From NCBI GenBank assembly GCA_029990205.1, contig JAPEKQ010000002.1:32845-96844 (forward strand): a stretch of DNA of 64,000 nt, given 5' to 3'. A program made the position numbers and the translations under genes. The stretch is from a bacterium. Its GTDB lineage: Bacteria; Joyebacterota; Joyebacteria; Joyebacterales; Joyebacteraceae. Of the stretch, positions 8,005 through 62,127 are shown piece after piece (position 1 is the stretch's first letter; each line of letters starts with the position of its first letter). The notes beneath the pieces are model-generated. The model had not been told where the DNA came from. It did no database searches and saw only the letters and a list, made by a program, of their open reading frames with translations.

Positions 8005-10326
8005 CTAGGTCACGGGCGTTAGCTTCCCGTACCTTAGCATGATGCGCTTCTCGACTCCACCGGCCTCATCGAAGCGGACGGTGACGACCATGTCGCCTCC
8101 GTGGCCCGCGATCCCGACAATGACGCCCTCACCCCACGACGGGTGCCGAACGCGGGTCCCCGGACCGAACTCCACGGCCTCCTGGCTCTGGTTCTCGTAG
8201 TCCGGAAAGACCCCGCGGGAACCACCTGAGGAACGCCCGGCGCCTCCGCGTGCTCCCGCGCCGCCACGCGAGCCCGCGCCGCCACGCGAGCCCGCTCCTC
8301 CGCGCGCACCCGCTCCGCGACCGGCTCGTCCCCGACCGCGCATCCCGTACCCGCCGCCGGGCCTCGAGGCCCGCTTCTGCTCGACGGCCGTCGAGACGGT
8401 CTCGAGATGGGATTCGTCGATCTCATGGATGAACCGTGACGGAGAGCGCAGGTTCGTCGTGCCGCCGCGCCGCCGCGTGTCCGCGGAGAACATGTGGAGC
8501 TGATTCATCGCCCTCGTCATCCCGACGTAGCAGAGCCGGCGCTCCTCCTCCATCTCCTCGTCGTCCTCGAACGACGACTCGTGGGGAAGCAGCCCGTCCT
8601 CCATTCCGGGGATGAGCACGATGGGGAACTCGAGCCCCTTCGCGTTGTGAAGCGTCATGAGCGAGACCGTGTTCGCCTCGCCCTCCCACCGGTCGATGTC
8701 CGCGACGAGCGAGACCTGTTCGAGGAATGCGCCGAGGCTCTCCTCGCCGCTCATCTCGACGAACTCGCTGGACGCCGAGACCAGCTCCTCGACGTTCGCC
8801 AGCCGCTGCGCGGTGTCCTCCGTGCGGCGGCCGTCGAGCCACGCCACGTATCCGGAACCGTCGAGCACCTCGTCGAGCAGGATGTTGACCGGTGTCGTCT
8901 CCACCTTCCGGCGCAGCCGGTCGAACATCCCGCGAAGCTCGCCGAGCGCAGTCCGCGCCGCCGGCCCGACACCGACGACCTCGCCGCCCATCCCGAGCGC
9001 CTCGTAGAGCGGAATGCCGCGGTCCAGGGCAAACTCCTCCAGACGCTCGATCGTCTTGTCTCCGATCTTCCGCGGCGGGACGTTGACGATCCGCCGGAGG
9101 CTCACGGCGTCCGCCGGGTTAACGATGACCTTGAGATAGGCGAGCACGTCCTTCACCTCGGAGCGCTCGTAGAAGCGCACGCCGCCGACGATATCGTATG
9201 CGATGCCGGCGCGCCGCAGGCTGTCCTCGATCACGCGGGACTGCGCGTGCGTCCGGTAGAGGATGGCGAAATCCCGGGGCTGAAGCCCGCGCTTGCTCAC
9301 GAGCGTCAGCACGAGGTCGCGGATCTCGTCGGCCTCCTGGTACTCGTTCGAAACCCTCGTGAACCGGACCGGGGCGCCTTCTTCGCGCTCGGTCCACAGC
9401 TCCTTCTCTTTGCGACGCTCGTTGTTGCTCACCACATCGTGCGCCGCGGCGAGAATGCCCGCGGTCGAGCGGTAGTTCTGCTCGAGTCTGAGGGTCACCG
9501 CGTCCGGGTGGTCCTTCTCGAAATCGAGAATGTTCGTGATGTCGGCCCCGCGCCACCCGTAGATCGACTGATCGTCGTCGCCGACGACGCAGATGTTGCG
9601 GTGCACCGACGAGAGCAGGTTGACGAGCGCGTACTGCGCGTGGCTGGTGTCCTGATACTCGTCGACGAGCACGTGGAGGAATCGCTCGGCGTACGACCGG
9701 CCGAGTTCGGGCTCGCGTCTGAGCAGCTGCACGACCTCCTTGATGAGATCATCGAAGTCGAAGGCGTTGTTCTCGCGCAGCCCCTTCTCGTACTCCGCGT
9801 AGACCCTGGCGGCCGTCTGTTCGTAGTGGTTCCCGGCCCGGCTCGCGTAGTCCTCCGCGGTGAGCAGGATGTCCTTCGCCCGAGAGATCTCGCCAAGGAA
9901 CGACTTCGGCGTGAACGTCGTCGTCGAGATGCCGAGTCTCCCCATGCAGTTCTTCACGAGGTCGACCTGGTCGGTCATGTCGTAGATGGTGAAATCCCGC
10001 GTCCACCATCCCCAGTCGGCTTCGATGCGAAGCAGCCGCGCGCACATCGAGTGGAACGTTCCCACCCACGGCAGCGCGACGTCGCGCGAGAGCATCTCCG
10101 TGATGCGCTTCTTCATCTCCCCGGCCGCCTTGTTCGTGAAGGTCACGGCAAGGATGCGTCGGGGAGAGATGTTCTTCTCCTCGATGAGATAGGCGATGCG
10201 TCGGGTCAGCACGCGCGTCTTGCCGCTGCCTGCCCCGGCCAGCACCAGAAGCGGCCCGTCACCGTGGCGGACCGCTCGTTCCTGCACCGAATTGAGGTTC
10301 TCGAGGTACGTCGTCGTCTTCGTCAC
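8005..10326 (-). CDS. pcrA: ATP-dependent DNA helicase PcrA/UvrD family with a Gly/Arg-rich linker and C-terminal Tudor-like domain
   Basis: GTG start. Walker A AGAGSGKTRVLTRRIAYLI. C-terminus RGRGRAGRGAGARGGAGSRGGAGSRGGAGARGGAG then ...TRVRHPSWGEGVIVGI... Confidence 0.9.
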   Translation of the reverse strand: MTKTTTYLENLNSVQERAVRHGDGPLLVLAGAGSGKTRVLTRRIAYLIEEKNISPRRILAVTFTNKAAGEMKKRITEMLSRDVALPWVGTFHSMCARLLRIEADWGWWTRDFTIYDMTDQVDLVKNCMGRLGISTTTFTPKSFLGEISRAKDILLTAEDYASRAGNHYEQTAARVYAEYEKGLRENNAFDFDDLIKEVVQLLRREPELGRSYAERFLHVLVDEYQDTSHAQYALVNLLSSVHRNICVVGDDDQSIYGWRGADITNILDFEKDHPDAVTLRLEQNYRSTAGILAAAHDVVSNNERRKEKELWTEREEGAPVRFTRVSNEYQEADEIRDLVLTLVSKRGLQPRDFAILYRTHAQSRVIEDSLRRAGIAYDIVGGVRFYERSEVKDVLAYLKVIVNPADAVSLRRIVNVPPRKIGDKTIERLEEFALDRGIPLYEALGMGGEVVGVGPAARTALGELRGMFDRLRRKVETTPVNILLDEVLDGSGYVAWLDGRRTEDTAQRLANVEELVSASSEFVEMSGEESLGAFLEQVSLVADIDRWEGEANTVSLMTLHNAKGLEFPIVLIPGMEDGLLPHESSFEDDEEMEEERRLCYVGMTRAMNQLHMFSADTRRRGGTTNLRSPSRFIHEIDESHLETVSTAVEQKRASRPGGGYGMRGRGRAGRGAGARGGAGSRGGAGSRGGAGARGGAGRSSGGSRGVFPDYENQSQEAVEFGPGTRVRHPSWGEGVIVGIAGHGGDMVVTVRFDEAGGVEKRIMLRYGKLTPVT

Positions 10327-10380: not shown

Positions 10381-13300
10381 CTAGAACTCCGCTCCGATGG
10401 CGAAGTGAGAGACCGGCTCGCCCGTCGTCTGAAGGTCGGTCGGCCACGCGAGATCGTACCGCAGCACGAAGTAGCCGAACCGCATCCTCGCGCCGATCCC
10501 GTAGCTGGCCTTGATGTCCTGGAACCGCACGGCGTCGGTGCGGGCGACACCGCGGAACTCCTCGTTCCACGCGGCGCCAAGGTCCGCGAACATCACGCCC
10601 CGAAGTCCCCAGATCGACAGCGGGATCGGCGAGGCGATGGTCAGATTGTCGATGAACGGGTAGCGGAGTTCGAGTGTCGCCAGCGCCACGTTGTGCCCGC
10701 TGAACTCGAAATCGTCGTACCCGCGGATCGAGTTGACGCCGCCGATGTAGAACGTCTGCGCGTCCGCCTGCGAACTCCGCGCGTAGACCAGCTTCGTCGC
10801 GAGGCTGTGTCTCGCGCCGATGCGCGTGTAGTGACGCAGATCGGCGATACCCGTCAGGAAGCTGAAATCGCTCCCCATCCCGATCGACTTGGAGACGGAC
10901 AGCGAGGAGCGCCCGCCGCTGATGGGACCGACCGATCCCCACAGCGTCGTGTCGTTGACGAAGCGCAGGCTCGGAAGGAGCAGCGTGCGATCGACCTCCT
11001 CGTCGGTGAGTTCGATCTCGCCTTCCGTGTTCTCCTCGGCGAAGCGCCGCGAGAGCGACAGGCTCCCGACGTCGAACTCGACGCGTGAGAAGTGGCTGAG
11101 CGGATACGTCATGCCGACCGAGACGCCGTAGTTGCGCTCGGTGAAGTACCGCTTCTCGCCCAGATCCTCGCCAAGCCGCGTGCGGTCCGAGTAGTAGTAC
11201 TCGCGGTAGGTGTAGACGGAGAGCGCGTAGTTGATCCGGTTCGCGAGATACTCATAGCGAATGTGCGCGTTCGAGAACTCGAAACTCGAGAAGAAGTCGG
11301 TGGCGACGTAGAAGCGATGGTTGCCCAGGATGTCGCTCACCGCGATCTCGGCTGTGCCGCCGAACCCGTAGGCGGAGCTGTATGAGAACCCGCCGTCGAT
11401 CCAGTCCGGGCTGAACTTGGGCGTGTACCGCTCGACGGTCCCGGCCTGCCGCTCCTCCTCCTCGATACTCGGAGGCAGCTGGCCGGTGGCACGCGAGTAG
11501 GCGGTCCGGGCCTTCCTCACGGCATCGCTCTCGGCGCGCTCGCCGGGCTCATCGCGAGGTCTGGGCGGCCCGCCGCCCAGCCTGAGCGGAGCCGGCTGCG
11601 TCATGGCCGTGTCGACCACGGCGGTCGCGTCGTCATCCGTCGGCGGATCATCGGGCATGGTGACGGTGCCGACGGAGGTGTCATCAATGATCTCGCCGTC
11701 CCGGCCGAACGTCACGACTTCGCTGTGCACGGTCGGCGCGTCAGAGAGGGCGACGCCCCCGTCATCCGCATCGGGACGCTCGACCACCGCGACCCATTCG
11801 TCCTGGTAGTTGTCGAACGGCTCGGGCGCGTCGACGTCCGAGATCGCCGGGAAGCGCTCGCCACCGTTGATGGCGTCCGCGAAGTGCGACAGCGGCGACT
11901 TCACGACGGCCACGTCCCAACCGCCCTCCTCGTACGCGGCGAACGCAAGCCGGTCGCCATCGTGAGACCAGCTCGGCGTCTCCGCGCCGCCGATGAGCGA
12001 TGTGAGCCGCACACACGTTGAGTCGCCGAGGTCCGCCAGGTAGAGATCCGGGGTCCCGAGTCGATCGGAGGAGTAGATGATGTAGCGGCCGTCCGGCGAC
12101 CAGGTGGGCGACTGCTCCCAGCCCGGGCCGCGAACGAGCGGTGTGACGCGTGTGCTCGCAACATCGACCGAGTAGAGGTCGTAGCTGCGATCGAACCCGC
12201 GATTGAGCGGCGAGTCGCGGTCCGACTCGAACGCGATCGACCGGCCGTCGGGCGACCAGGCCGGGTTCCGCTCGTCATCGTAGTCGTCGGTCAGTCGCCT
12301 CAGGCTCTCCCCCATCACGTCCGTGACGTAGAGCTCGGAGGCTCCGTCCCTCGTCCCGATGAACGCGATGTGGTCCCCGTCGGGCGACCAGACTGGCGTG
12401 TAGACGCCGTCAAGGTCGAACGCGAGACTCCGGACGAGCCCGCTCCCGTCGGCTCCGACGATGTGGATCGCGTCACTGCCGCCGGCCTTCGTGCCGAAGC
12501 AGATCATCGTTCCGTCGGGCGACCACGAGAAGCCCACCCGCAGCACGTGCATCTGCTCGAATGCGTCGGTCGTCTCGCCCTTGATGATGCGACCGAGCGT
12601 CGCCCCATCGAGCGTCGAGACGTGGTACACGTCGGCATACCCTGTCCTGTCCGAGAGGAACACCACGGAGTTGCCGTCGGGCGCGATCGAGGGACCGACA
12701 TTGAAGTATGAGTTGTCCTTCCTGTGGTCGGTCAGAAGCTTCGCCTCGTCCTTCGCGCGCTCCAGCCCCGCGATCCCGGGCCAGTAGCGGTTCCGAAGCC
12801 ATCGTTCCCACTCCTGGTTGAGCTCGGCCGTCGACAGCCCGGTCGCCTCGCGGAGCGAGCGCTCGAGGTTCTGCGTTCTCGCCATCACCCGGACGAGTTC
12901 CTTGACCTTCTCCTCGCCGTACCGGTCCGCGATGAAGTTGAGCGCGGACTGTCCTTCCTTGTAGACGAGATACCCGCCGTAAAGATACTCGAGCGGCACG
13001 ACCGCGTCCGCCGTCGTGAGATCGCGCAGGATCATCTCGGCCTGTGTGTCCCAGCCCTGCGAGGCGAACTCAGCCAGCCCCTCCGCGAACCAGAGCGGGA
13101 CCGGGTTGAAGTACGCCTGACGGATGACCGACTCGGCGAGACCGCGGTAGACGATGTCGAACATGAACACGTGCGTCATCTCGTGATGGATGACGTGCCT
13201 GAGTTCGTAGTACGAACCGGTGAACGGGATGACGACGCGGTTCTTGAACAGCTCGGTGAACCCGCCGACCCCCTCGCCTACGTGCGACGAGAGGACGTTG

Positions 13301-13605
13301 GTCTGCTGGAACTCGTTGTGGGAGGCGTAGACGATGATGGGGATCACCGTCGTCAGTTCGTGGCCGAAGAGCTCCTCGAGGTGGTCGTTCGATTCCTCGA
13401 CGATACGGCAGACGGCGTCCGCGACATCCTCCGACCCGTCGTAGTAGTAGACGTCGAAGTGCTCGGTGCGGATGATCTGCCAGTCGAAGTTCTGGTACTG
13501 TATCTTGTTCCTGCCGAACTGGGCGCCCCGGGCCGCGTCCGCGGTGGCGAGGAGGGCGGCCACCGCTCCCAGCAGGACCATGAGTCGTGCGCTTCGCATG
13601 AACAT
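10381..13605 (-). CDS. Large outer-membrane protein: N-terminal HExxH (MA-clan-like) domain, central TolB-like WD40/PD40 beta-propeller repeats, C-terminal Omp85/D15 surface-antigen beta-barrel
   Basis: Signal peptide MFMRSARLMVLLGAVAALLATADA. HVIHHEMTHVF (HExxH). Repeated ...WSPDG(R/D).IAF... motifs (PAWSPDGRSIAFESDR, PTWSPDGRYIIYSSDR, PSWSHDGDRLAF). C-terminus ...GIGARMRFGYFVLRYDLAWPTD...SHFAIGAEF ends in an aromatic residue. Start is ATG 13605 or 13599. Confidence 0.8.
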   Translation of the reverse strand: MFMRSARLMVLLGAVAALLATADAARGAQFGRNKIQYQNFDWQIIRTEHFDVYYYDGSEDVADAVCRIVEESNDHLEELFGHELTTVIPIIVYASHNEFQQTNVLSSHVGEGVGGFTELFKNRVVIPFTGSYYELRHVIHHEMTHVFMFDIVYRGLAESVIRQAYFNPVPLWFAEGLAEFASQGWDTQAEMILRDLTTADAVVPLEYLYGGYLVYKEGQSALNFIADRYGEEKVKELVRVMARTQNLERSLREATGLSTAELNQEWERWLRNRYWPGIAGLERAKDEAKLLTDHRKDNSYFNVGPSIAPDGNSVVFLSDRTGYADVYHVSTLDGATLGRIIKGETTDAFEQMHVLRVGFSWSPDGTMICFGTKAGGSDAIHIVGADGSGLVRSLAFDLDGVYTPVWSPDGDHIAFIGTRDGASELYVTDVMGESLRRLTDDYDDERNPAWSPDGRSIAFESDRDSPLNRGFDRSYDLYSVDVASTRVTPLVRGPGWEQSPTWSPDGRYIIYSSDRLGTPDLYLADLGDSTCVRLTSLIGGAETPSWSHDGDRLAFAAYEEGGWDVAVVKSPLSHFADAINGGERFPAISDVDAPEPFDNYQDEWVAVVERPDADDGGVALSDAPTVHSEVVTFGRDGEIIDDTSVGTVTMPDDPPTDDDATAVVDTAMTQPAPLRLGGGPPRPRDEPGERAESDAVRKARTAYSRATGQLPPSIEEEERQAGTVERYTPKFSPDWIDGGFSYSSAYGFGGTAEIAVSDILGNHRFYVATDFFSSFEFSNAHIRYEYLANRINYALSVYTYREYYYSDRTRLGEDLGEKRYFTERNYGVSVGMTYPLSHFSRVEFDVGSLSLSRRFAEENTEGEIELTDEEVDRTLLLPSLRFVNDTTLWGSVGPISGGRSSLSVSKSIGMGSDFSFLTGIADLRHYTRIGARHSLATKLVYARSSQADAQTFYIGGVNSIRGYDDFEFSGHNVALATLELRYPFIDNLTIASPIPLSIWGLRGVMFADLGAAWNEEFRGVARTDAVRFQDIKASYGIGARMRFGYFVLRYDLAWPTDLQTTGEPVSHFAIGAEF

Positions 13606-13694
13606 AGGTTGTCCCATCCGTGTAGGAACCTGCTCGGTTTTCATTCTAGTCCCGCCCGAGCGGGGTGTCAACCGGACCCGGGCACGTCGGCCTG

Positions 13695-13775: not shown

Positions 13776-14141
13776 ATGAGACGAAGAGCCGCCTCAGATG
13801 TTCGCTTTGCCGTATGCGCCGTCGCGCTCGCGCTCGCGACCGTGGCCCTGACCGGCTGCGGCGCCGATGCCGACAGTGAGATAGGGACGGACCCGACGGA
13901 CACGGTCTACATCGAGTACATGGCCGCGCTGACGCTCTCCATCGAGGAGGGCCTCTCGGGCGATGCGGCGGAGACCCGGATGGCCGAGCTCGGCGTCGAG
14001 CCTCTCACGCGTGAGGAGATCGACGAGCACGTCCAAAGACTGAGCCGCGACCCCGTCAGGTGGTCACGGCTCGAGGAACAGGTTCAGGAACGTCTGGAAG
14101 AGCTCCGGCGCGAGCAGCGCTCTCCTACCACAGCCCCATGA
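13776..14141 (+). CDS. Small lipoprotein, hypothetical
   Basis: MRRRAASDVRFAVCAVALALATVALTGC (lipobox LTGC). GGAGG RBS 10 nt upstream. Overlaps the 3' end of the convergent rseP by 17 nt. Confidence 0.5.
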   Translation: MRRRAASDVRFAVCAVALALATVALTGCGADADSEIGTDPTDTVYIEYMAALTLSIEEGLSGDAAETRMAELGVEPLTREEIDEHVQRLSRDPVRWSRLEEQVQERLEELRREQRSPTTAP

Positions 14142-15426
14142 TGTCTCGCACGACCAGCAGCACCATCACGACACCGAAGAAGGCCAGGCCGATCTGCTGC
14201 CACACGATGAGCTGACGCTCCGTGAGCGTCCGCTTCCTGAGCTTCTCAAGGAGCAGCAGCAGGAGATGCCCGCCGTCGAGAATGGGCAGCGGGAGCAGGT
14301 TGATGACGCAGAGGTTGATGCTCATGATCGCCATGAACGTGAAGAAGTAGCTTCCACCCCACCGCGCACTCTCACTCGCCATTCTCACAACACGGATCGG
14401 ACCACCGAGCTGCTCGGTCGACGCCCGGAGCGTCACCAGCTGCCAGAAGAAAGCGCACACCTGTGAGAACGTGCTTCCGGTGAACCGGGCGCTTCCGAGG
14501 ATGGCCTCGCCCGGCCCCAGTCTCTCCGTCGCCCAGGGCCGCATGACGCCGATGAGACCGACCTCCACCATCTCGCCCTCCGCGTTCGGCTCTTCGCCGA
14601 CGTCCGTGTGGAGCACCGCGCGCATCTCGGTTCCGTCGCGTTCCCAGACGATCTCGACATCGCTGTCGGGCCTCTCGCGGATCGTGTCGCCGACCTCGAA
14701 CCAGTCCCCGACGGCGACTCCGTCGATCGACAGGATACGGTCACCCTTGTGGATCCCGGCCGCCGCGGCGGGGCTTCTCCCCTGAAGACCGCCGACCACC
14801 GGCGGCACGTACGGCTCGAGCCCGAACTCGAACGCGGCGGTCTCGTCGTCGATGACCGTCGGCAGCTCGAAGTCAACGCTCCGGCCGTCCGAGAACACGA
14901 GCGAGAGCCCGGCCTGCGCGTTCCCGACCTCCGAGTAGATATCCGCCCAGTTCTCGACCGCAACACCGTTGACGCTCTCGATCCGGTCACCCACGGCCAC
15001 GCCTTCGCGCTCCGCGTCAGAGCCCTCGGCGACGGCGCCGACGATCGGCTCGCCGAAGGTCGGAAGACCCGCCAGCATGAGAACGCCGACGACGACGATG
15101 AAGGCCCACACGAAGTTCATGATGGGACCCGCGGCCACGATGAACGCCCTCAGCGAGATACGCTTCGCGACGAAGCTGTCCGGTGGCGCACCGGTCGGAT
15201 CGGCCACGTGCTCCGCCCCCGACATCTTCACGTACCCGCCGAGCGGAATGGCCGAGATGGCGAACTCGGTGTCACCCACGACCCTCGTGAGTATGCGCGG
15301 ACCGAACCCGATCGAGAACCGCTCGACCCGAACGCCGGAGATACGGCACGCGAGGAAGTGACCGATCTCGTGAACGATGATGAGGATCCCGAGAAGGACC
15401 GCGGCGAAGATGTAGTAGATGAACAT
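14125..15426 (-). CDS. rseP: RIP metalloprotease RseP (site-2 protease, M50, with PDZ domains)
   Basis: MFIYYIFAAVLLGILIIVHEIGHFLACRISGVRVERFSIGFGP... (HExxH within TM1). C-terminus ...ILDGGHLLLLLLE. Confidence 0.9.
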   Translation of the reverse strand: MFIYYIFAAVLLGILIIVHEIGHFLACRISGVRVERFSIGFGPRILTRVVGDTEFAISAIPLGGYVKMSGAEHVADPTGAPPDSFVAKRISLRAFIVAAGPIMNFVWAFIVVVGVLMLAGLPTFGEPIVGAVAEGSDAEREGVAVGDRIESVNGVAVENWADIYSEVGNAQAGLSLVFSDGRSVDFELPTVIDDETAAFEFGLEPYVPPVVGGLQGRSPAAAAGIHKGDRILSIDGVAVGDWFEVGDTIRERPDSDVEIVWERDGTEMRAVLHTDVGEEPNAEGEMVEVGLIGVMRPWATERLGPGEAILGSARFTGSTFSQVCAFFWQLVTLRASTEQLGGPIRVVRMASESARWGGSYFFTFMAIMSINLCVINLLPLPILDGGHLLLLLLEKLRKRTLTERQLIVWQQIGLAFFGVVMVLLVVRDIMGLW

Positions 15427-15498: not shown

Positions 15499-16659
15499 CT
15501 ACGTGTTGAGCTCGCGGATGAGCTCTGATGCGACGGCCGCCGCTTCGGTCTCCGCGGCCCGGATGGCTTCGAGCGACTCGGCGGCGCCCGACGACGTCCG
15601 CTCGAGCGTCCGCTCGATGACGGCGGCGATCCCGCCGAACGGCAGCCGGCGCGTGACAAAGGCGTCGACCGCACACTCGTCGGCGGTCGCCGCGACAGCG
15701 GGCGCAGTTCCGCCGCGTCTGCCGGCCTCGAGCGCGAGCCCGAAGCACGGGTACCGCGACTCTTCGAGCGGCTCGAAGTGGAGCGCGCCGAACTCGGAGA
15801 GCGTTCTCCCGCCGAACGACACGGTCGGAGGGTCGGGGTAGTACATCGCGTACTGGATGGGGACCCTCATGTCCGGATCACCAAGATGCGCGAGCTGACT
15901 GCCGTCCTTGAGTCGCACGAGCGAGTGCACGACCGACTCCCGATGGACGACGACCTCGATCCGGTCGAACCCGAGACCGAACAGCCAGTGCGCCTCGAGC
16001 ACCTCGAGTCCCTTGTTGAACATGGTCGCGGAGTCGACCGTGACCTTCGCCCCCATCTCCCACGTCGGATGCTTGAGCACGTCCTCGATCGTTGCGGTCT
16101 CGAGCGTCGAGGCGTGCGCGTCGCGGAGCGGACCGCCTGACGCGGTCAGCGTGATGCCCTCCACCTCGTCGTGGTGGACGCCGCGCAGACAGCGGAAGAT
16201 GGCGCTGTGCTCGCTGTCGACCGGCACGAGTTCACTCCCCGTGACCGTCGCGAGCGCCGTGATGAGTTCGCCGGCCGCGACCAGCGATTCCTTGTTGGCG
16301 ATGGCCAGCTGATGGCCGGCGCGGACCGCCGCCATGGCGGGACCGAGCCCCGACGCCCCGACCAGCGCGTTGACCACGACGTCAACGGACGGATCGGACG
16401 CGAGAGCGTCGAGCCCCTCCGCTCCGCTGAGCGCCTCAACACCACCGGGCAGCGCGACGTCGGCGGTCGTGTCCGCGTCGCCGAATACCACACGGTCCGC
16501 CCGGAACCGCTCCGCCTGCTCCGCGAGGAGCTCCGTGTTGCGATACGCGGAGAGCCCGACGACGTCGAAGTCGTCCGGCGCGGCCTCGACGACCGAGAGC
16601 GCTCCGGTCCCGATGGAACCGGTCGAGCCGAGAATGACGATGCGTCTCGCCTTGGACAC
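15499..16659 (-). CDS. dxr: 1-deoxy-D-xylulose 5-phosphate reductoisomerase
   Basis: VSKARRIVILGSTGSIGTGALSVV... GTG start at 16659 with GGGAG upstream. The longer track ORF would overlap cdsA. Confidence 0.9.
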   Translation of the reverse strand: MSKARRIVILGSTGSIGTGALSVVEAAPDDFDVVGLSAYRNTELLAEQAERFRADRVVFGDADTTADVALPGGVEALSGAEGLDALASDPSVDVVVNALVGASGLGPAMAAVRAGHQLAIANKESLVAAGELITALATVTGSELVPVDSEHSAIFRCLRGVHHDEVEGITLTASGGPLRDAHASTLETATIEDVLKHPTWEMGAKVTVDSATMFNKGLEVLEAHWLFGLGFDRIEVVVHRESVVHSLVRLKDGSQLAHLGDPDMRVPIQYAMYYPDPPTVSFGGRTLSEFGALHFEPLEESRYPCFGLALEAGRRGGTAPAVAATADECAVDAFVTRRLPFGGIAAVIERTLERTSSGAAESLEAIRAAETEAAAVASELIRELNT

Positions 16660-16673
16660 CGCGGTCTCCCTCG

Positions 16674-17531
16674 CTACTGGGGAATCATGAGTTGGAGCTT
16701 CGGCAAGATGAAGCGCAGGTAGTAGTACACGAACGGCGCCACGAAGAGCACGCTGTCGAACCGGTCCAACATGCCGCCGTGTCCCGGGAGCGCGCGTGAT
16801 GTGTCCTTGACCTGGACGTCGCGCTTCATCATGGACTCGACGAGGTCGCCCAGCGTCGCGGCGACAGCCGCGATGACGCCGAGCGCGAGCGCGTCCCAGA
16901 CCGAGAGGAACGTCGCGAACGTGTGGCGCGCGAGGAAGGCGGTCGCCACCGCGAGTATGAGTCCGCCGACTGCGCCCTCCACGGACTTGTTCGGACTCAC
17001 GCGCGGCATGAGCTTGGTCTTCCCGAACGCGCTCCCGAAGAAGTACGCGCCGGTATCGCACAGCCACGCGAGCCCGAACGCGAGGATGACGAACCAGCCG
17101 CCGCGGTCACCCCACGGTGAAGATTCACCAAGCTGTCTGAGAAGGATGATATGGCTTCCGAGCCAGCCGACGTAGAAGACCCCGAGGATGGTCGTCGAGA
17201 TGTGGAAGACGGCGAGTTCGCTGTCGCGACGGAAGAGCTCCATGACCATCACGAGCGCAAGCACGACGGTCACGAAGAAGCTCGAGAACATGCCCTCCTG
17301 GAAGTAGACGTACCAGGAGACGCCCAGACCCGCGAGAATGCCGACGGTCTTGTAGGGCTTGATGCCCTTGTACTCCATCATGCGGTAGAACTCGAACAGA
17401 CCGACGCCCAGCACGAAATTGATGACGATGAGGAAACCCCAGCCGCCGACGAGCGAGAATACGATCGCCGCCGGCACACCCACCGCCGCCGTCAAGAGAC
17501 GCTTGCTGAGCTGCTGTCGATTGACGCCCAT
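16674..17531 (-). CDS. cdsA: Phosphatidate cytidylyltransferase
   Basis: Multi-TM protein. C-terminal ...KRDVQVKDTSRALPGHGGMLDRFDSVLFVAP. Confidence 0.9.
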   Translation of the reverse strand: MGVNRQQLSKRLLTAAVGVPAAIVFSLVGGWGFLIVINFVLGVGLFEFYRMMEYKGIKPYKTVGILAGLGVSWYVYFQEGMFSSFFVTVVLALVMVMELFRRDSELAVFHISTTILGVFYVGWLGSHIILLRQLGESSPWGDRGGWFVILAFGLAWLCDTGAYFFGSAFGKTKLMPRVSPNKSVEGAVGGLILAVATAFLARHTFATFLSVWDALALGVIAAVAATLGDLVESMMKRDVQVKDTSRALPGHGGMLDRFDSVLFVAPFVYYYLRFILPKLQLMIPQ

Positions 17532-17563
17532 ACCGTTTCTCGCCTCTCGGGCCGCGCCGTCTA

Positions 17564-57464: not shown

Positions 57465-58829
57465 CTATGCTCTTCCTTCCCCGGAGCCTCCGAGAGCCTT
57501 CTCGGCTCTCGTCGCGAGCGCGTCCGCGCCATCGGCATCCGGCGCTTCGGCGATAACACGTACGATCGGCTCCGTGTTCGAAGGGCGTACGTGGACCCAT
57601 CTGTCGGCCCACGAGATCTTGACTCCATCGGTCCGGTCGATCTCTCCACCGGTCAGTACGGCGACCAGCGCACTCTCCAGCTCGGCGGTCGACCGGGTCG
57701 CCGCCGGGAGCTTCCTTTTCACGATCGCATAGGGCGTGAGCTCGCGCACGAGCTCTCCGACGGTCGCCACGCCTCTGCGGGCCATGTGCGACACGATGAG
57801 CGCCACCGCCGTCGCCGCGTCGCGGCCGGGCTGCACGTCCGGCAGCACGACCCCACCGTTCCCCTCACCTCCCACGACGGCTGAGACCTCGAACATCTTC
57901 TCCACAACGTTCGCTTCGCCCACCGCCGTGCGATGAACGTTCACCCCGTACGAGGCTGCGACGTCGTCCATCATCCGACTCGTCGAGACATTGGTCACCA
58001 CGGGGCCCGGCGTGGTCGCAAGCACCGCACCGGTCGCGAGCGCCAGCGTGAACTCTTCACCGACGGCCAGACCGGTCTCGTCGACGATGGCGAGACGGTC
58101 CGCGTCCGGATCACACGCAAAGCCTGCCGCCGCACCGGTCTCACGGACGCGATCCCCGAGCGCCGTGAGGCTCTCGGGGACAGGCTCCGCCACACGCGGG
58201 AACCCTGTGCCGACCTCGGTGAACACCTCGACGACCTCGCACCCGAGCCTCCGCAGAAGCTGCGGGAGGATCACCGAACCCGCCGCGTTGCAGCAGTCGA
58301 CGACGATTCGAGGAGCCGCGTCGGCCACGGCGGCGCGGTCCACGTGCTGTGTGTCCAGAACCAGCTCGATGTGTGTCCTGATCGCGTCGGCGGTCTCCGG
58401 CGCAACCTCCGGGTCCGGGCACGGCGCCGCGGCTCTTCCCGCGAGCGCGTCGGCGGCGTCGAAGATCCGTTCGCCTTCCTCGCGCGTCACGAACACGCCG
58501 GAGCCCGAGAAGAACTTCAGGCCGTTGTACTCCCCCGGATTGTGACTCGCGGTGATGCAGATGCCGCCCGCGCATCCCCGGGTGCGGACGGCCACACCGA
58601 CGGTCGGGGTCGGCACGATACCGAGCTGGACCGGCGTCACACCGGCGATGAGAAGTCCCTGGACGACGGCCGCCTCGAGCGCGTCTCCGCCCGGGCGGGA
58701 GTCCCACCCGACCGCGACGCGGCCACCGGCGAGCTCTCCGAATGCGCGCGCGTGCCGTCGCGCGATGTTCTCATCGAGGTCACGCGGCACGATCCCGCGC
58801 ACACCCGCAACACTCCTGATAAGCGTCAA
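57465..58829 (-). CDS. glmM: Phosphoglucosamine mutase / alpha-D-phosphohexomutase family (glmM-like)
   Basis: ...SVAGVRGIV... Active-site ...ICITASHNPGEYNGLKFF... TTG start with GGGAGG RBS. Lies directly upstream of glmS on the same strand. Confidence 0.85.
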   Translation of the reverse strand: MTLIRSVAGVRGIVPRDLDENIARRHARAFGELAGGRVAVGWDSRPGGDALEAAVVQGLLIAGVTPVQLGIVPTPTVGVAVRTRGCAGGICITASHNPGEYNGLKFFSGSGVFVTREEGERIFDAADALAGRAAAPCPDPEVAPETADAIRTHIELVLDTQHVDRAAVADAAPRIVVDCCNAAGSVILPQLLRRLGCEVVEVFTEVGTGFPRVAEPVPESLTALGDRVRETGAAAGFACDPDADRLAIVDETGLAVGEEFTLALATGAVLATTPGPVVTNVSTSRMMDDVAASYGVNVHRTAVGEANVVEKMFEVSAVVGGEGNGGVVLPDVQPGRDAATAVALIVSHMARRGVATVGELVRELTPYAIVKRKLPAATRSTAELESALVAVLTGGEIDRTDGVKISWADRWVHVRPSNTEPIVRVIAEAPDADGADALATRAEKALGGSGEGRA

Positions 58830-60643
58830 GGCTGGTCCTCCCCGCCGCCGGCCGGCAGAGGCTCGTCCGGTGTCTCGTCAGGGATGTCATCGAAGGTCCC
58901 GCTCTCGACCTCCTCGAGCGGCTCGCCGGACGATCCTCCCGTGACCTCATCTTCGGCGTCCGCTTCTGGTTCGGCGGGCTCGATCCCGAGAGCCTTCTCG
59001 GCCTCGCGAGCGTAGTCCGTGTCCGGATACATCTCGATGATCCCGCGGTAGGCCTCGGCGGACAGCATGGGCTGCTCGAGCATCTCGCTCCGCGCCCACG
59101 CGGCGGCCAGCGCCGCCTTCGGCCCGAGCGGCGTGTTGCCGAAGTGTTCGACGACCATCTCGTAGTACCCGACGGCCTCCTCGGCATTGTCCATCTTGAA
59201 GAGGTAGAGCTCGCCCGCGCGGAACATCGCCCTCGCCTCTTCCGGAACCACGACGGTGTCGGGTTCGGCGGCGGCAGGCGTGTCGAGCAGTGTGACGGCG
59301 AGGGAATCGGCTGGAATGGCCAGCGAGTCGGCCGGAATCGACAGCGAGTCGCTGAGCATCGTCACGAACTGCGACTCGTCGACGGCTTCCGCGACCGCCG
59401 CCAGTGAATCGGCTGGAGCAATCAAGGAGTCGGCCGGGGCAATCGAGGAGTCGGCGGCCGCGAGCAGCGTGTCCGCGGACGCGGACAGCGTGTCGGCCAG
59501 GCCGGCGAGAGTGTCCGCCTCAGTCGGGGTCTCCTCGGGACCGGCGAGCCAGCTCTCGATGAGAGCGAGCGACTCCTGGAGCTCCTCGATGTCGCGGATG
59601 GCATCTCCGGCCTCACGCGACACATCGCTTCGCGGAGCCTCATCCTTGGCGTCGCGGAACGATTCGACGGCTTCCTCGAAGGTCCCGAATCCGTCACGAC
59701 GGATCAGACCGACGCGATAGAGCGCCTCGGCCGCGGCGTTCGACCGCTCATGCGACGCGGCGATACCCTCGTACGTGGAGACTGCGTCCTCGAGATCACC
59801 CATCATCTCCTGCGTGCGTCCCCTCAGGAGGAGCACGCGGTCCAGATCATCGCGATCGGTCGTGCGACGTTCCACGTCGCCGAGAACCTCGAGAGCATCC
59901 TCCAGGCGATTGACATCAAGATAGACCTCGGCCAGCCGGACACGCGCTTCGAACGCAAGCTGCCGGGCTCCACGCTCGTCGCTGACCGCGGCGAGGTGGT
60001 GCGCCGCCTCCTCGAGCCTTCCCATCGCCACGAAGTTCTCGGCGGCGAGGAATCGGATCTCCGCGCGGAGATCGCTGTTCGGGAAACGCTCCAGCGCCAG
60101 CGCGTAGGCCTCGGCCGCCTCGTCGAAGTGGCGCCGCGAGTGTCTGGCGCGGCCGACCATCACGAGAGCGTCATCGGAGAGGTCGACCGGCGGGTCCGCG
60201 TACGCAAGATCCGCAAGTGTCTGCTCAGCCGAGACCGGGTTGTCCCGGGCGAGCATGACGGCAGCGAGCAGATAGCCCGCTTCCGCGGAGAGATCGCTGT
60301 CGGGATAGAGCGCTGCGAAGTCGTTCAGGCGCATCTCCGCGCTCTCGTACTTCCCCTGTCGGTAGAGCGCGTTCGCCATCAGCAGCAGCGCGTCGTCCGC
60401 CCAGTCCGAGTTCGGATAGAGCGTCAGCACACGCCCGCTCTTCTCGATGGCGCGGTCAAGATGCTCGTTCTCCTGTGATGTCGGCTCGGAGTCCGGCGGC
60501 CTCGTCGCCCGGATGCTCTCGGCATCGGCGTAGGCGCTCCTGGCGTGGTAGAACGTGTTGTAGTACACGCAACCGCTGAGCGCCAACGCTGCGAGCGCCA
60601 CGACAGACCCGAGAAGCAGGGCGGTGCGTGCTTTGGTCCTCAC
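58826..60643 (-). CDS. TPR-repeat lipoprotein with an internal (I/A)PADSL(A/I) tandem-repeat segment and an acidic C-terminus
   Basis: GTG start at 60643 (GAGGAG RBS). Signal VRTKARTALLLGSVVALAALALSGC (lipobox). Multiple TPR-like helices. Repeat block ...ADTLAGLADTLSASADTLLAAADSSIAPADSLIAPADSLAAVAE...SDSLSIPADSLAIPADSLAV... Confidence 0.7.
   Translation of the reverse strand: MRTKARTALLLGSVVALAALALSGCVYYNTFYHARSAYADAESIRATRPPDSEPTSQENEHLDRAIEKSGRVLTLYPNSDWADDALLLMANALYRQGKYESAEMRLNDFAALYPDSDLSAEAGYLLAAVMLARDNPVSAEQTLADLAYADPPVDLSDDALVMVGRARHSRRHFDEAAEAYALALERFPNSDLRAEIRFLAAENFVAMGRLEEAAHHLAAVSDERGARQLAFEARVRLAEVYLDVNRLEDALEVLGDVERRTTDRDDLDRVLLLRGRTQEMMGDLEDAVSTYEGIAASHERSNAAAEALYRVGLIRRDGFGTFEEAVESFRDAKDEAPRSDVSREAGDAIRDIEELQESLALIESWLAGPEETPTEADTLAGLADTLSASADTLLAAADSSIAPADSLIAPADSLAAVAEAVDESQFVTMLSDSLSIPADSLAIPADSLAVTLLDTPAAAEPDTVVVPEEARAMFRAGELYLFKMDNAEEAVGYYEMVVEHFGNTPLGPKAALAAAWARSEMLEQPMLSAEAYRGIIEMYPDTDYAREAEKALGIEPAEPEADAEDEVTGGSSGEPLEEVESGTFDDIPDETPDEPLPAGGGEDQP
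59290..59520 (-). repeat. In-frame degenerate tandem repeat (about 21-24 nt units, GAGTCGGCCGGRRCAATCGASRGC-like) encoding the PADSL repeats
   Basis: Units GGAATCGGCTGGAATGGCCAGCGAGTCGGCCGGAATCGACAGCGAGTCGCTGAGC ... GTGAATCGGCTGGAGCAATCAAGGAGTCGGCCGGGGCAATCGAGGAGTCGGCGGCC. Confidence 0.5.
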
Positions 60644-60671
60644 GAAGTGTCTCCTCGATGTGGCTCGGTTC

Positions 60672-62127
<1,456 letters not shown>

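Follow-up and report, generated by a model that had tools for sequence, protein, structure and literature searches.

The 64-kb stretch of contig JAPEKQ010000002.1 analysed here (the window, with a GC content of 66%) encodes on its minus strand a protein, referred to as X, in which a predicted gluzincin-type metallopeptidase domain, a six-bladed PD40/TolB-like beta-propeller and a 16-strand Omp85-type beta-barrel follow one another in a single chain. Judged by this architecture and by shared structural templates, X belongs to the WD40-Omp85 subfamily defined by Heinz and Lithgow (Front Microbiol 2014, PMC4104836). We tentatively read X as an outer-membrane-tethered, periplasm-facing metallopeptidase that may serve the quality control or processing of unfolded envelope proteins; this is a good possibility, which draws on analogies to known envelope systems.

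The gene of X, whose strand the original prediction had left unstated, has an ATG start at 13605, which yields 1074 amino acids, and its stop codon is included at 10381. The longest open reading frame (ORF) starts from a TTG at 13671 and would comprise 1096 amino acids. The shorter form is backed by the gene call on JAPEKT010000004.1 (GCA_029990285.1) as well as by all homologues, and an identical protein of 1074 amino acids (P0001) is present in a public protein collection. Conservation was evaluated in 44 database homologues and, independently, in 77 sequences taken from genome loci with 31–100% identity. Labels among the latter are Eisenbacteria, TA06, Zixibacteria, Gemmatimonadota, Calditrichota, KSB1, Marinimicrobia and Ignavibacteriales, including many phyla of the FCB group. 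The original prediction, made from the sequence of the window, had called the protein secreted. This is in good agreement with the N-terminus, which reads as a Sec signal peptide; residues 2–24 form a helix in the AlphaFold2 model, and family conservation begins at F30/G31 in the alignment of the 44 homologues. As the signal peptide carries neither a Cys nor a lipobox, X is not a lipoprotein.

Three Pfam families score above their gathering thresholds on X, namely Peptidase_MA_2, PD40 and Omp85 (PF01103). The full-length AlphaFold2 model, built from 44 family members, has a mean predicted local distance difference test score (pLDDT) of 76 and a predicted template modelling score (pTM) of 0.71. 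Pfam and NCBIfam, the AlphaFold2 models and Foldseek all agree on the single polypeptide with three modules that the original prediction had described, and the fusion of separate genes, which it had named as one of the ways in which it could fail, is ruled out. The codon-position GC across the entire ORF is typical of coding sequence (0.88 at third positions), and a protein identical to X occurs on 14 independent contigs. The same unbroken architecture recurs across 412 species-level genomes and thousands of metagenome proteins, and therefore X is not a fusion artefact. We found nothing in favour of an artefact or pseudogene made of two or three genes, and we regard it as next to impossible.

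Peptidase_MA_2 matches X with 43.7 bits against a cutoff of 32.4 (expectation value E = 3.6e-11). Residues 40–290 form an alpha/beta-plus-helical domain in the full-length model, and a separate model of the N-terminal domain (pLDDT 77.5, pTM 0.79) matches the catalytic domains of M9 collagenases and M1 aminopeptidases in Foldseek, with template modelling (TM) scores of 0.5–0.6 and E-values to 1.5e-5. The matches comprise clostridial M9 collagenases, ERAP1, PepN, tricorn factor F3 and LTA4 hydrolase (4ar9, 3qnf and 1z1w among the structures), at a sequence identity of only 10–17%. It was the fold search with the domain model alone that gave these matches: a sequence profile of the family searched against the PDB returned no peptidase structure for the domain, and most matches of the full-length fold search were to TolB and BamA. 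It had been set down beforehand that the HExxH region might turn out to fold as a non-peptidase domain. The region models as a gluzincin peptidase instead, because the domain model matches the M9 and M1 catalytic domains.

The HEMTH motif of the original prediction was confirmed by direct reading. The catalytic set of gluzincins, i.e., of clan MA(E), consists of HExxH, a Glu in a WxxEG helix and a conserved Tyr, and X shares all three with Peptidase_MA_2, M9 and M1 enzymes. Its WFAEGLAEF helix resembles the WLNEGFA motif of M1 peptidases, and E175 within this helix is presumed, by analogy, to be the third zinc ligand (HExxH-x29-E). As is typical of clan MA(E), the Glu lies at least 18 residues downstream of HExxH, and the domain model has a thermolysin-like catalytic fold, as seen from its TM scores to M9 and M1. 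G115, E118 and Y215 are further residues of the domain without exchange in any of the 77 sequences. Because H141, E142, H145, E175, G176, E179, E118 and Y215 are all invariant in this set, the peptidase looks active, with the full catalytic set of HExxH, Glu175 and Tyr215. X differs from M9 collagenases by the absence of the collagenase activator domain, and from M1 aminopeptidases by the absence of the GxMEN (GAMEN) exopeptidase motif, in place of which it carries an invariant GGFTE(L) stretch. The Pfam scan gave no M1 match for X, and an M48 match only at E = 0.06.

PD40 matches X in five stretches (E = 7.6e-41). Where at least five PD40/TolB repeats had been predicted, we count six WSPDG-type repeats, at residues 308, 361, 406, 450, 502 and 546, one per blade, and the model shows six groups of four strands between residues 300 and 570 with a pLDDT above 90. 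TolB structures are the top Foldseek matches of the propeller. In the PDB search with the family profile, TolB appears at 1e-26; the search returned the TolB and BamA/TamA classes and no solved family member, and DPP-IV, acylaminoacyl peptidase and tricorn are among its matches. The TolB model TIGR02800 reaches 172 bits (E = 2e-50) against a cutoff of 343, and only the propeller part aligns. Thus, X has the six-bladed PD40 propeller in common with TolB, but it scores below the cutoff, lacks the N-terminal domain of TolB and is anchored by a barrel.

Propeller and barrel are separated by a linker with a pLDDT of about 30 over residues 598–716. It is the sole unconserved part of the family, and its length varies between 39 and 206 residues among the 77 sequences. 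The Pfam scan found no POTRA domain in X and the segment ahead of the barrel is disordered in the model, which bears out the original statement that POTRA domains are missing. Likewise, the C-terminal Omp85-like barrel with its terminal Phe, as originally predicted, is supported by PF01103 (58.2 bits against a cutoff of 24, E = 1.3e-15), by sixteen predicted strands between residues 731 and 1070, and by Foldseek matches to BamA (from Fusobacterium, Deinococcus and E. coli) and TamA. The BamA model TIGR03303 reaches 57 bits against a cutoff of 297, in the barrel part only, and the TamA model 25 bits against 625.

The barrel shares with BamA and TamA the number of strands, the (V/I)RG(Y/F) motif of loop 6, FxDxG on strand 13, a Gly at position -4 and a terminal aromatic residue. 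Among the 77 sequences, R961-G962 is kept in 76, G1071 in 75, the triad F1006, D1008 and G1010 in 74, and the terminal Phe in 69. The Gly -4 spacing equals that of the Eisenbacteria BamA (which ends in ...SLGQAF) and also matches the end of E. coli BamA (...IGKTW). From these motifs, the barrel looks functional. X is unlike BamA and TamA in that it has no POTRA domain, stays below both family cutoffs and coexists with a genuine BamA in relatives. Because the motifs of enzyme part and barrel are kept across the 77 sequences, both parts are, by this measure, under strong purifying selection.

The 2014 survey splits the Omp85/TpsB superfamily into ten subfamilies, of which WD40-Omp85 (or 'WD40-like') is defined by PF07676 plus PF01103 (PMC4104836). 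Table S3 of that survey names approximately 100 members, which come from Bacteroidetes, Rhodothermus, Salinibacter, Caldithrix, Gemmatimonas, Anaeromyxobacter, Sorangium, Geobacter and Vibrio, e.g., Gemmatimonas aurantiaca C1A6X2 and proteins of Rhodothermus marinus, Salinibacter ruber and Caldithrix abyssi (PMC4104836). In the Phyre2 results given there, the barrel has BamA/TamA as templates and the propeller has TolB, and a column 'best aminopeptidase hit' lists 1z5h, 4kxd, 3qnf, 4ar1 and 4ar9, i.e., M1 aminopeptidase or ColG collagenase (PMC4104836). The template classes recovered for X are the same, peptidase module included. As in the subfamily profile of Table S2, a PD40 propeller precedes a PF01103 barrel in a protein free of POTRA domains; with the third, M1/ColG-like module also shared, nothing essential differs between X and the subfamily (PMC4104836). 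The combination of peptidase, propeller and barrel, presented in the original prediction as a departure from canonical Omp85 proteins, had thus been catalogued already. The implied novelty is overstated, and X is a member from a newly sampled phylum.

In the main text of the survey, the subfamily is likened to a BamA-BamB fusion and only the propeller is treated; catalytic-site conservation and gene context are not mentioned, and the Eisenbacteria were outside the sample (PMC4104836). A 2016 paper names the subfamily in a list, nothing more. The 412 genomes in which the scan located an X-type protein belong to Eisenbacteria, Zixibacteria, Gemmatimonadota, Calditrichota, Ignavibacteria, Marinimicrobia and others, and the survey adds Bacteroidetes, Myxococcales and Vibrio to the carriers (PMC4104836). 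Among the 80 best genome matches listed, which do not include the assembly of the window, the closest is 84% identical to X. Public records give the family unspecific names ('BamA/TamA family outer membrane protein', 'PD40 domain-containing protein' or 'Tol biopolymer transport system component'). What we add is that the catalytic site is universally conserved and that the barrel ends like that of BamA, together with the gene order rseP-bamA-tamB-X-pcrA in Eisenbacteria and a clade-specific lipoprotein gene as neighbour.

To our knowledge, all Omp85 proteins of known structure have the polypeptide N-terminal to strand 1 in the periplasm, and because of this topology we take a periplasmic peptidase-propeller head as the default. 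X would be exported via Sec and its predicted barrel inserted into the outer membrane, and the flexible linker of about 130 residues would tether a compact head below the barrel. There, near the outer membrane, the head might cleave envelope polypeptides that are unfolded or have stalled. The propeller could bind or gate substrates, as in propeller-gated peptidases; since in several peptidases the active site is flanked or gated by a PD40 propeller, a selection of unfolded chains by the propeller is suggested. The BamA-like barrel would anchor the protein and might also dock substrates that bear a beta-signal. In E. coli, the soluble periplasmic HExxH metallopeptidase BepA, an M48 enzyme with TPR repeats, acts together with BAM at the site of outer-membrane protein (OMP) assembly, and X may be a fused analogue of this BepA-BAM arrangement. 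The analogy is one of function and not of homology, as BepA is a soluble M48 enzyme, whereas X is fused to a barrel and belongs to another peptidase family.

The genomic context is consistent with this proposal. On the minus strand, the window has the order tsf-pyrH-frr-uppS-...-dxr-rseP-X-pcrA-gatC...gatB, and the slot of X after rseP is the classical position of bamA. Synteny was derived from 90 fetched loci by gene calls and a phmmer screen. Within the Eisenbacteria, three types of arrangement were observed in the slot between rseP and pcrA. In type A, dxr-rseP-X-pcrA-gatCAB (approximately 28 loci, including the window), the X proteins are 52–100% identical to that of the window. In type B, rseP-bamA-tamB-X-pcrA (approximately 27 loci, with gaps of a few bases), they are 36–40% identical to it. 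Type C, rseP-bamA-tamB-pcrA-gatCAB without X in the slot, was seen in two genomes (loci L008–L010). The BamA of type B has 634 amino acids and POTRA domains; TIGR03303 scores 296 bits against the cutoff of 297, and because the alignment starts at model position 151, about three POTRA domains are suggested. As X stands alongside a POTRA-bearing BamA and TamB in relatives, it is not BamA but a neighbour of OMP-assembly genes. Of the two roles suggested in the original prediction, a surface-anchored protease or a periplasmic substrate handler, Omp85 topology and the position in the rseP-bamA-tamB cluster together favour, by analogy, the periplasmic one.

Type B comprises loci L001, L003, L004, L028 and L039–L063. 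Two of them, L050 and L058, which show an Eisenbacteria-like gene order, were deposited as 'Candidatus Limnocylindria' and 'Candidatus Udaeobacter' and are probably mis-binned or mislabelled. The Eisenbacteria BamA is short throughout (634–665 amino acids), always with a tamB of about 1300 amino acids directly after it and rseP just before. A pairing of BamA with TamB without a separate TamA has been described for Borrelia, and the arrangement in Eisenbacteria is alike (PMC5582053). The coordinates of X, its parts and its direct neighbours are compiled in Table 1.

Table 1. Features of X and of the adjoining genes; positions refer to the window.
Feature	Position	Strand	Remarks
Complete coding sequence of X	10381..13605	minus	1074 amino acids + stop; ORF list, translation check
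Sec-type signal peptide MFMRSARLMVLLGAVAALLATADA	13534..13605	minus	residues 1-24; read from sequence
Gluzincin-type metallopeptidase domain (Pfam Peptidase_MA_2), predicted	12721..13518	minus	residues ~30-295
HEMTH zinc-binding/catalytic motif (H141, E142, H145), predicted	13171..13185	minus	residues 141-145; invariant in 44/44 and 77/77
WFAEGLAEF helix	13066..13092	minus	residues 172-180; E175, G176, E179 invariant in 77/77
Six-bladed PD40/TolB-like beta-propeller	11890..12708	minus	residues 300-572
Disordered Asp/Pro/Ala/Glu-rich linker	11440..11853	minus	residues 585-722, ~130 residues
16-strand Omp85-type beta-barrel	10384..11436	minus	residues 724-1074
Loop-6 IRGY ((V/I)RG(Y/F) Omp85 hallmark)	10717..10728	minus	residues 960-963, between strands 11 and 12
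FADLG (FxDxG) on strand 13	10576..10590	minus	residues 1006-1010, within strand 996-1013
C-terminal GAEF (Gly at -4 + terminal Phe, end of beta-signal)	10384..10395	minus	X ends ...AIGAEF
rseP (site-2 protease)	14125..15426	minus	upstream of X; TIGR00054 E 3.8e-93, above cutoff
Small lipoprotein gene (121 amino acids, lipobox LTGC)	13776..14141	plus	between rseP and X; divergent from X, convergent with rseP
pcrA/uvrD-type helicase	8005..10326	minus	54 bp downstream of X; neighbour kept in Eisenbacteria; TIGR01073 E 1.7e-250

Four points weigh against a periplasmic quality-control peptidase. Outside the Eisenbacteria, X was not found near rseP, bamA, tamB or pcrA in the fetched loci and has no universal neighbour, and because its context differs there, the synteny argument is lineage-specific. 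The periplasmic placement of the head has the topology analogy to BamA and TamA as its sole basis. The assignment of the predicted zinc site to H141, H145 and E175 is drawn from sequence and from the analogy to gluzincins. Finally, full-text literature searches returned no experimental study of any WD40-Omp85 member, the 2014 survey and one paper that cites it being the sole matches.

The same architecture might also belong to a self-exporting surface protease, in which the barrel translocates its own peptidase-propeller passenger in the manner of PlpD (type Vd) and external proteins or peptides are digested for nutrition. The long, disordered, acidic and proline-rich linker of variable length directly ahead of the barrel would fit such a passenger, secreted collagenases come structurally closest to the peptidase, and the same alternative was raised by Heinz and Lithgow for enzyme-bearing Omp85 proteins (PMC4104836). 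PlpD likewise has its enzyme domain N-terminal to an Omp85-type barrel (PMC4104836). However, this enzyme is a patatin lipase and is accompanied by POTRA domains, which TpsB translocators also have, whereas Pfam finds neither a patatin nor a POTRA match in X. Furthermore, X keeps the loop-6 and FxDxG 'lid-lock' motifs as in the closed barrels of BamA and TamA, approximately 570 residues including a six-bladed propeller would need to pass in an unfolded state, and in Eisenbacteria the gene lies among genes of periplasm and envelope biogenesis. We therefore consider self-export unlikely.

The product of the small lipoprotein gene between rseP and X has a conserved motif, YIEYMAALTLSIEEGLSGE, and an acidic, helical C-terminus, and has no match to any Pfam or NCBIfam family. 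The gene keeps its place and orientation in 23 loci, each with the order rseP-X-pcrA, and is restricted to this clade; it sits where the sister clade has bamA-tamB. The lipoprotein is a possible clade-specific partner of X. In a further reading, X could be an alternative insertase, i.e., a BamA/TamA paralogue for the assembly or translocation of some OMPs, with the head as a POTRA substitute (receptor or chaperone) that also clears failed substrates. This is in line with the retention of every BamA barrel hallmark, including a Gly -4 placed as in the neighbouring Eisenbacteria BamA, with the adjacency of X to bamA-tamB, with the likeness of the subfamily to a BamA-BamB fusion (PMC4104836), and with X and the lipoprotein together occupying the bamA-tamB slot of sister clades. 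Yet the function of BamA and TamA depends on the POTRA domains that X lacks, the barrel is far below the BamA and TamA cutoffs given above, and the strict conservation of the peptidase site marks the head as an enzyme and not merely a receptor. On balance, an insertase role appears rather improbable.

As TolB proteins are the closest relatives of the propeller by sequence and by fold, X might also tether the outer membrane to the wall by binding Pal or partners associated with peptidoglycan, with the peptidase trimming wall-linked lipoproteins or peptides. The score of the TolB model is only half of its cutoff, the N-terminal TolA-binding domain of TolB is absent, no tol-pal genes adjoin X, and PD40 propellers are common in many unrelated peptidases; such a tether is very unlikely.

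Neither a six-frame phmmer search nor Pfam on large ORFs detected a BamA or TamB in the 64-kb window, and BamA queries of types B and C gave no match on the X-bearing contigs of type A, some of which reach 615 kb. Two longer BamA candidates (P0312 and P0233) belong to tamB-bamA pairs that lie on metagenome contigs of high GC content; these contigs stem from other samples and are unlinked to the clade. Since X and the lipoprotein fill the bamA-tamB slot and these searches found no POTRA-bearing BamA on contigs of the clade, one may think of both as an autonomous machine for OMP insertion and quality control that partly or wholly replaces BamA in this lineage. We give this very little credence, the parsimonious view being that bamA-tamB is located elsewhere in an incomplete metagenome-assembled genome. 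A TPR protein of 625 amino acids (58826–60703, minus strand) passes the cutoffs of both BamD (84.5 against 81.4) and YbgF/CpoB (108 against 90) and also matches the PorW/SprE model of the type IX secretion system below cutoff. Its identity is ambiguous; from these matches, it hints at a conventional BAM complex, or at a Tol-Pal component, in the genome.

WD40-Omp85 proteins are widespread and known so far from their computational definition. For the reading as a periplasm-facing metallopeptidase, the invariant catalytic site and the adjacency to rseP-bamA-tamB lead to a concrete hypothesis, namely a protease built into an Omp85 barrel for OMP quality control. If true, this would be a new functional class in a superfamily whose other known functions are insertion and translocation. 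The copy of X in the window adds no principle beyond this hypothesis for the family.

Outside the Eisenbacteria, two pairings, each confined to certain lineages, were the only ones to recur in the fetched loci. A GWxTD-domain gene (about 430 amino acids, PF20094) lies immediately downstream of X on the same strand in five loci (L062, L068, L074, L075 and L085) from Gemmatimonadota, KSB1 and other lineages. In seven loci from Zixibacteria and Ignavibacteriales (L057, L064, L066, L080, L081, L084 and L088), a gene of the EPSP synthase family (PF00275, with murA and aroA not distinguished) is immediately upstream on the same strand, and a DUF4416 gene also precedes X on that strand. Four of these (L080, L081, L084 and L088) carry a gene for a LonB/LonC-like protease downstream of X on the opposite strand.

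Some minor observations concern the flanking genes of the window. The PcrA/UvrD protein has a Gly/Arg-rich low-complexity insert, RGRGRAGRGAGARGGAGSRGGAGSRGGAGARGGAGRSSGGSRG, at residues ~665–710, ahead of its C-terminal Tudor-like domain. The dxr ORF (15499–17067) is approximately 140 codons longer than the match of the Dxr model, which begins at residue 141. In the related loci L002 and L008, the position that corresponds to the stretch from dxr to uppS (16657–17563, minus strand) is occupied by cdsA.

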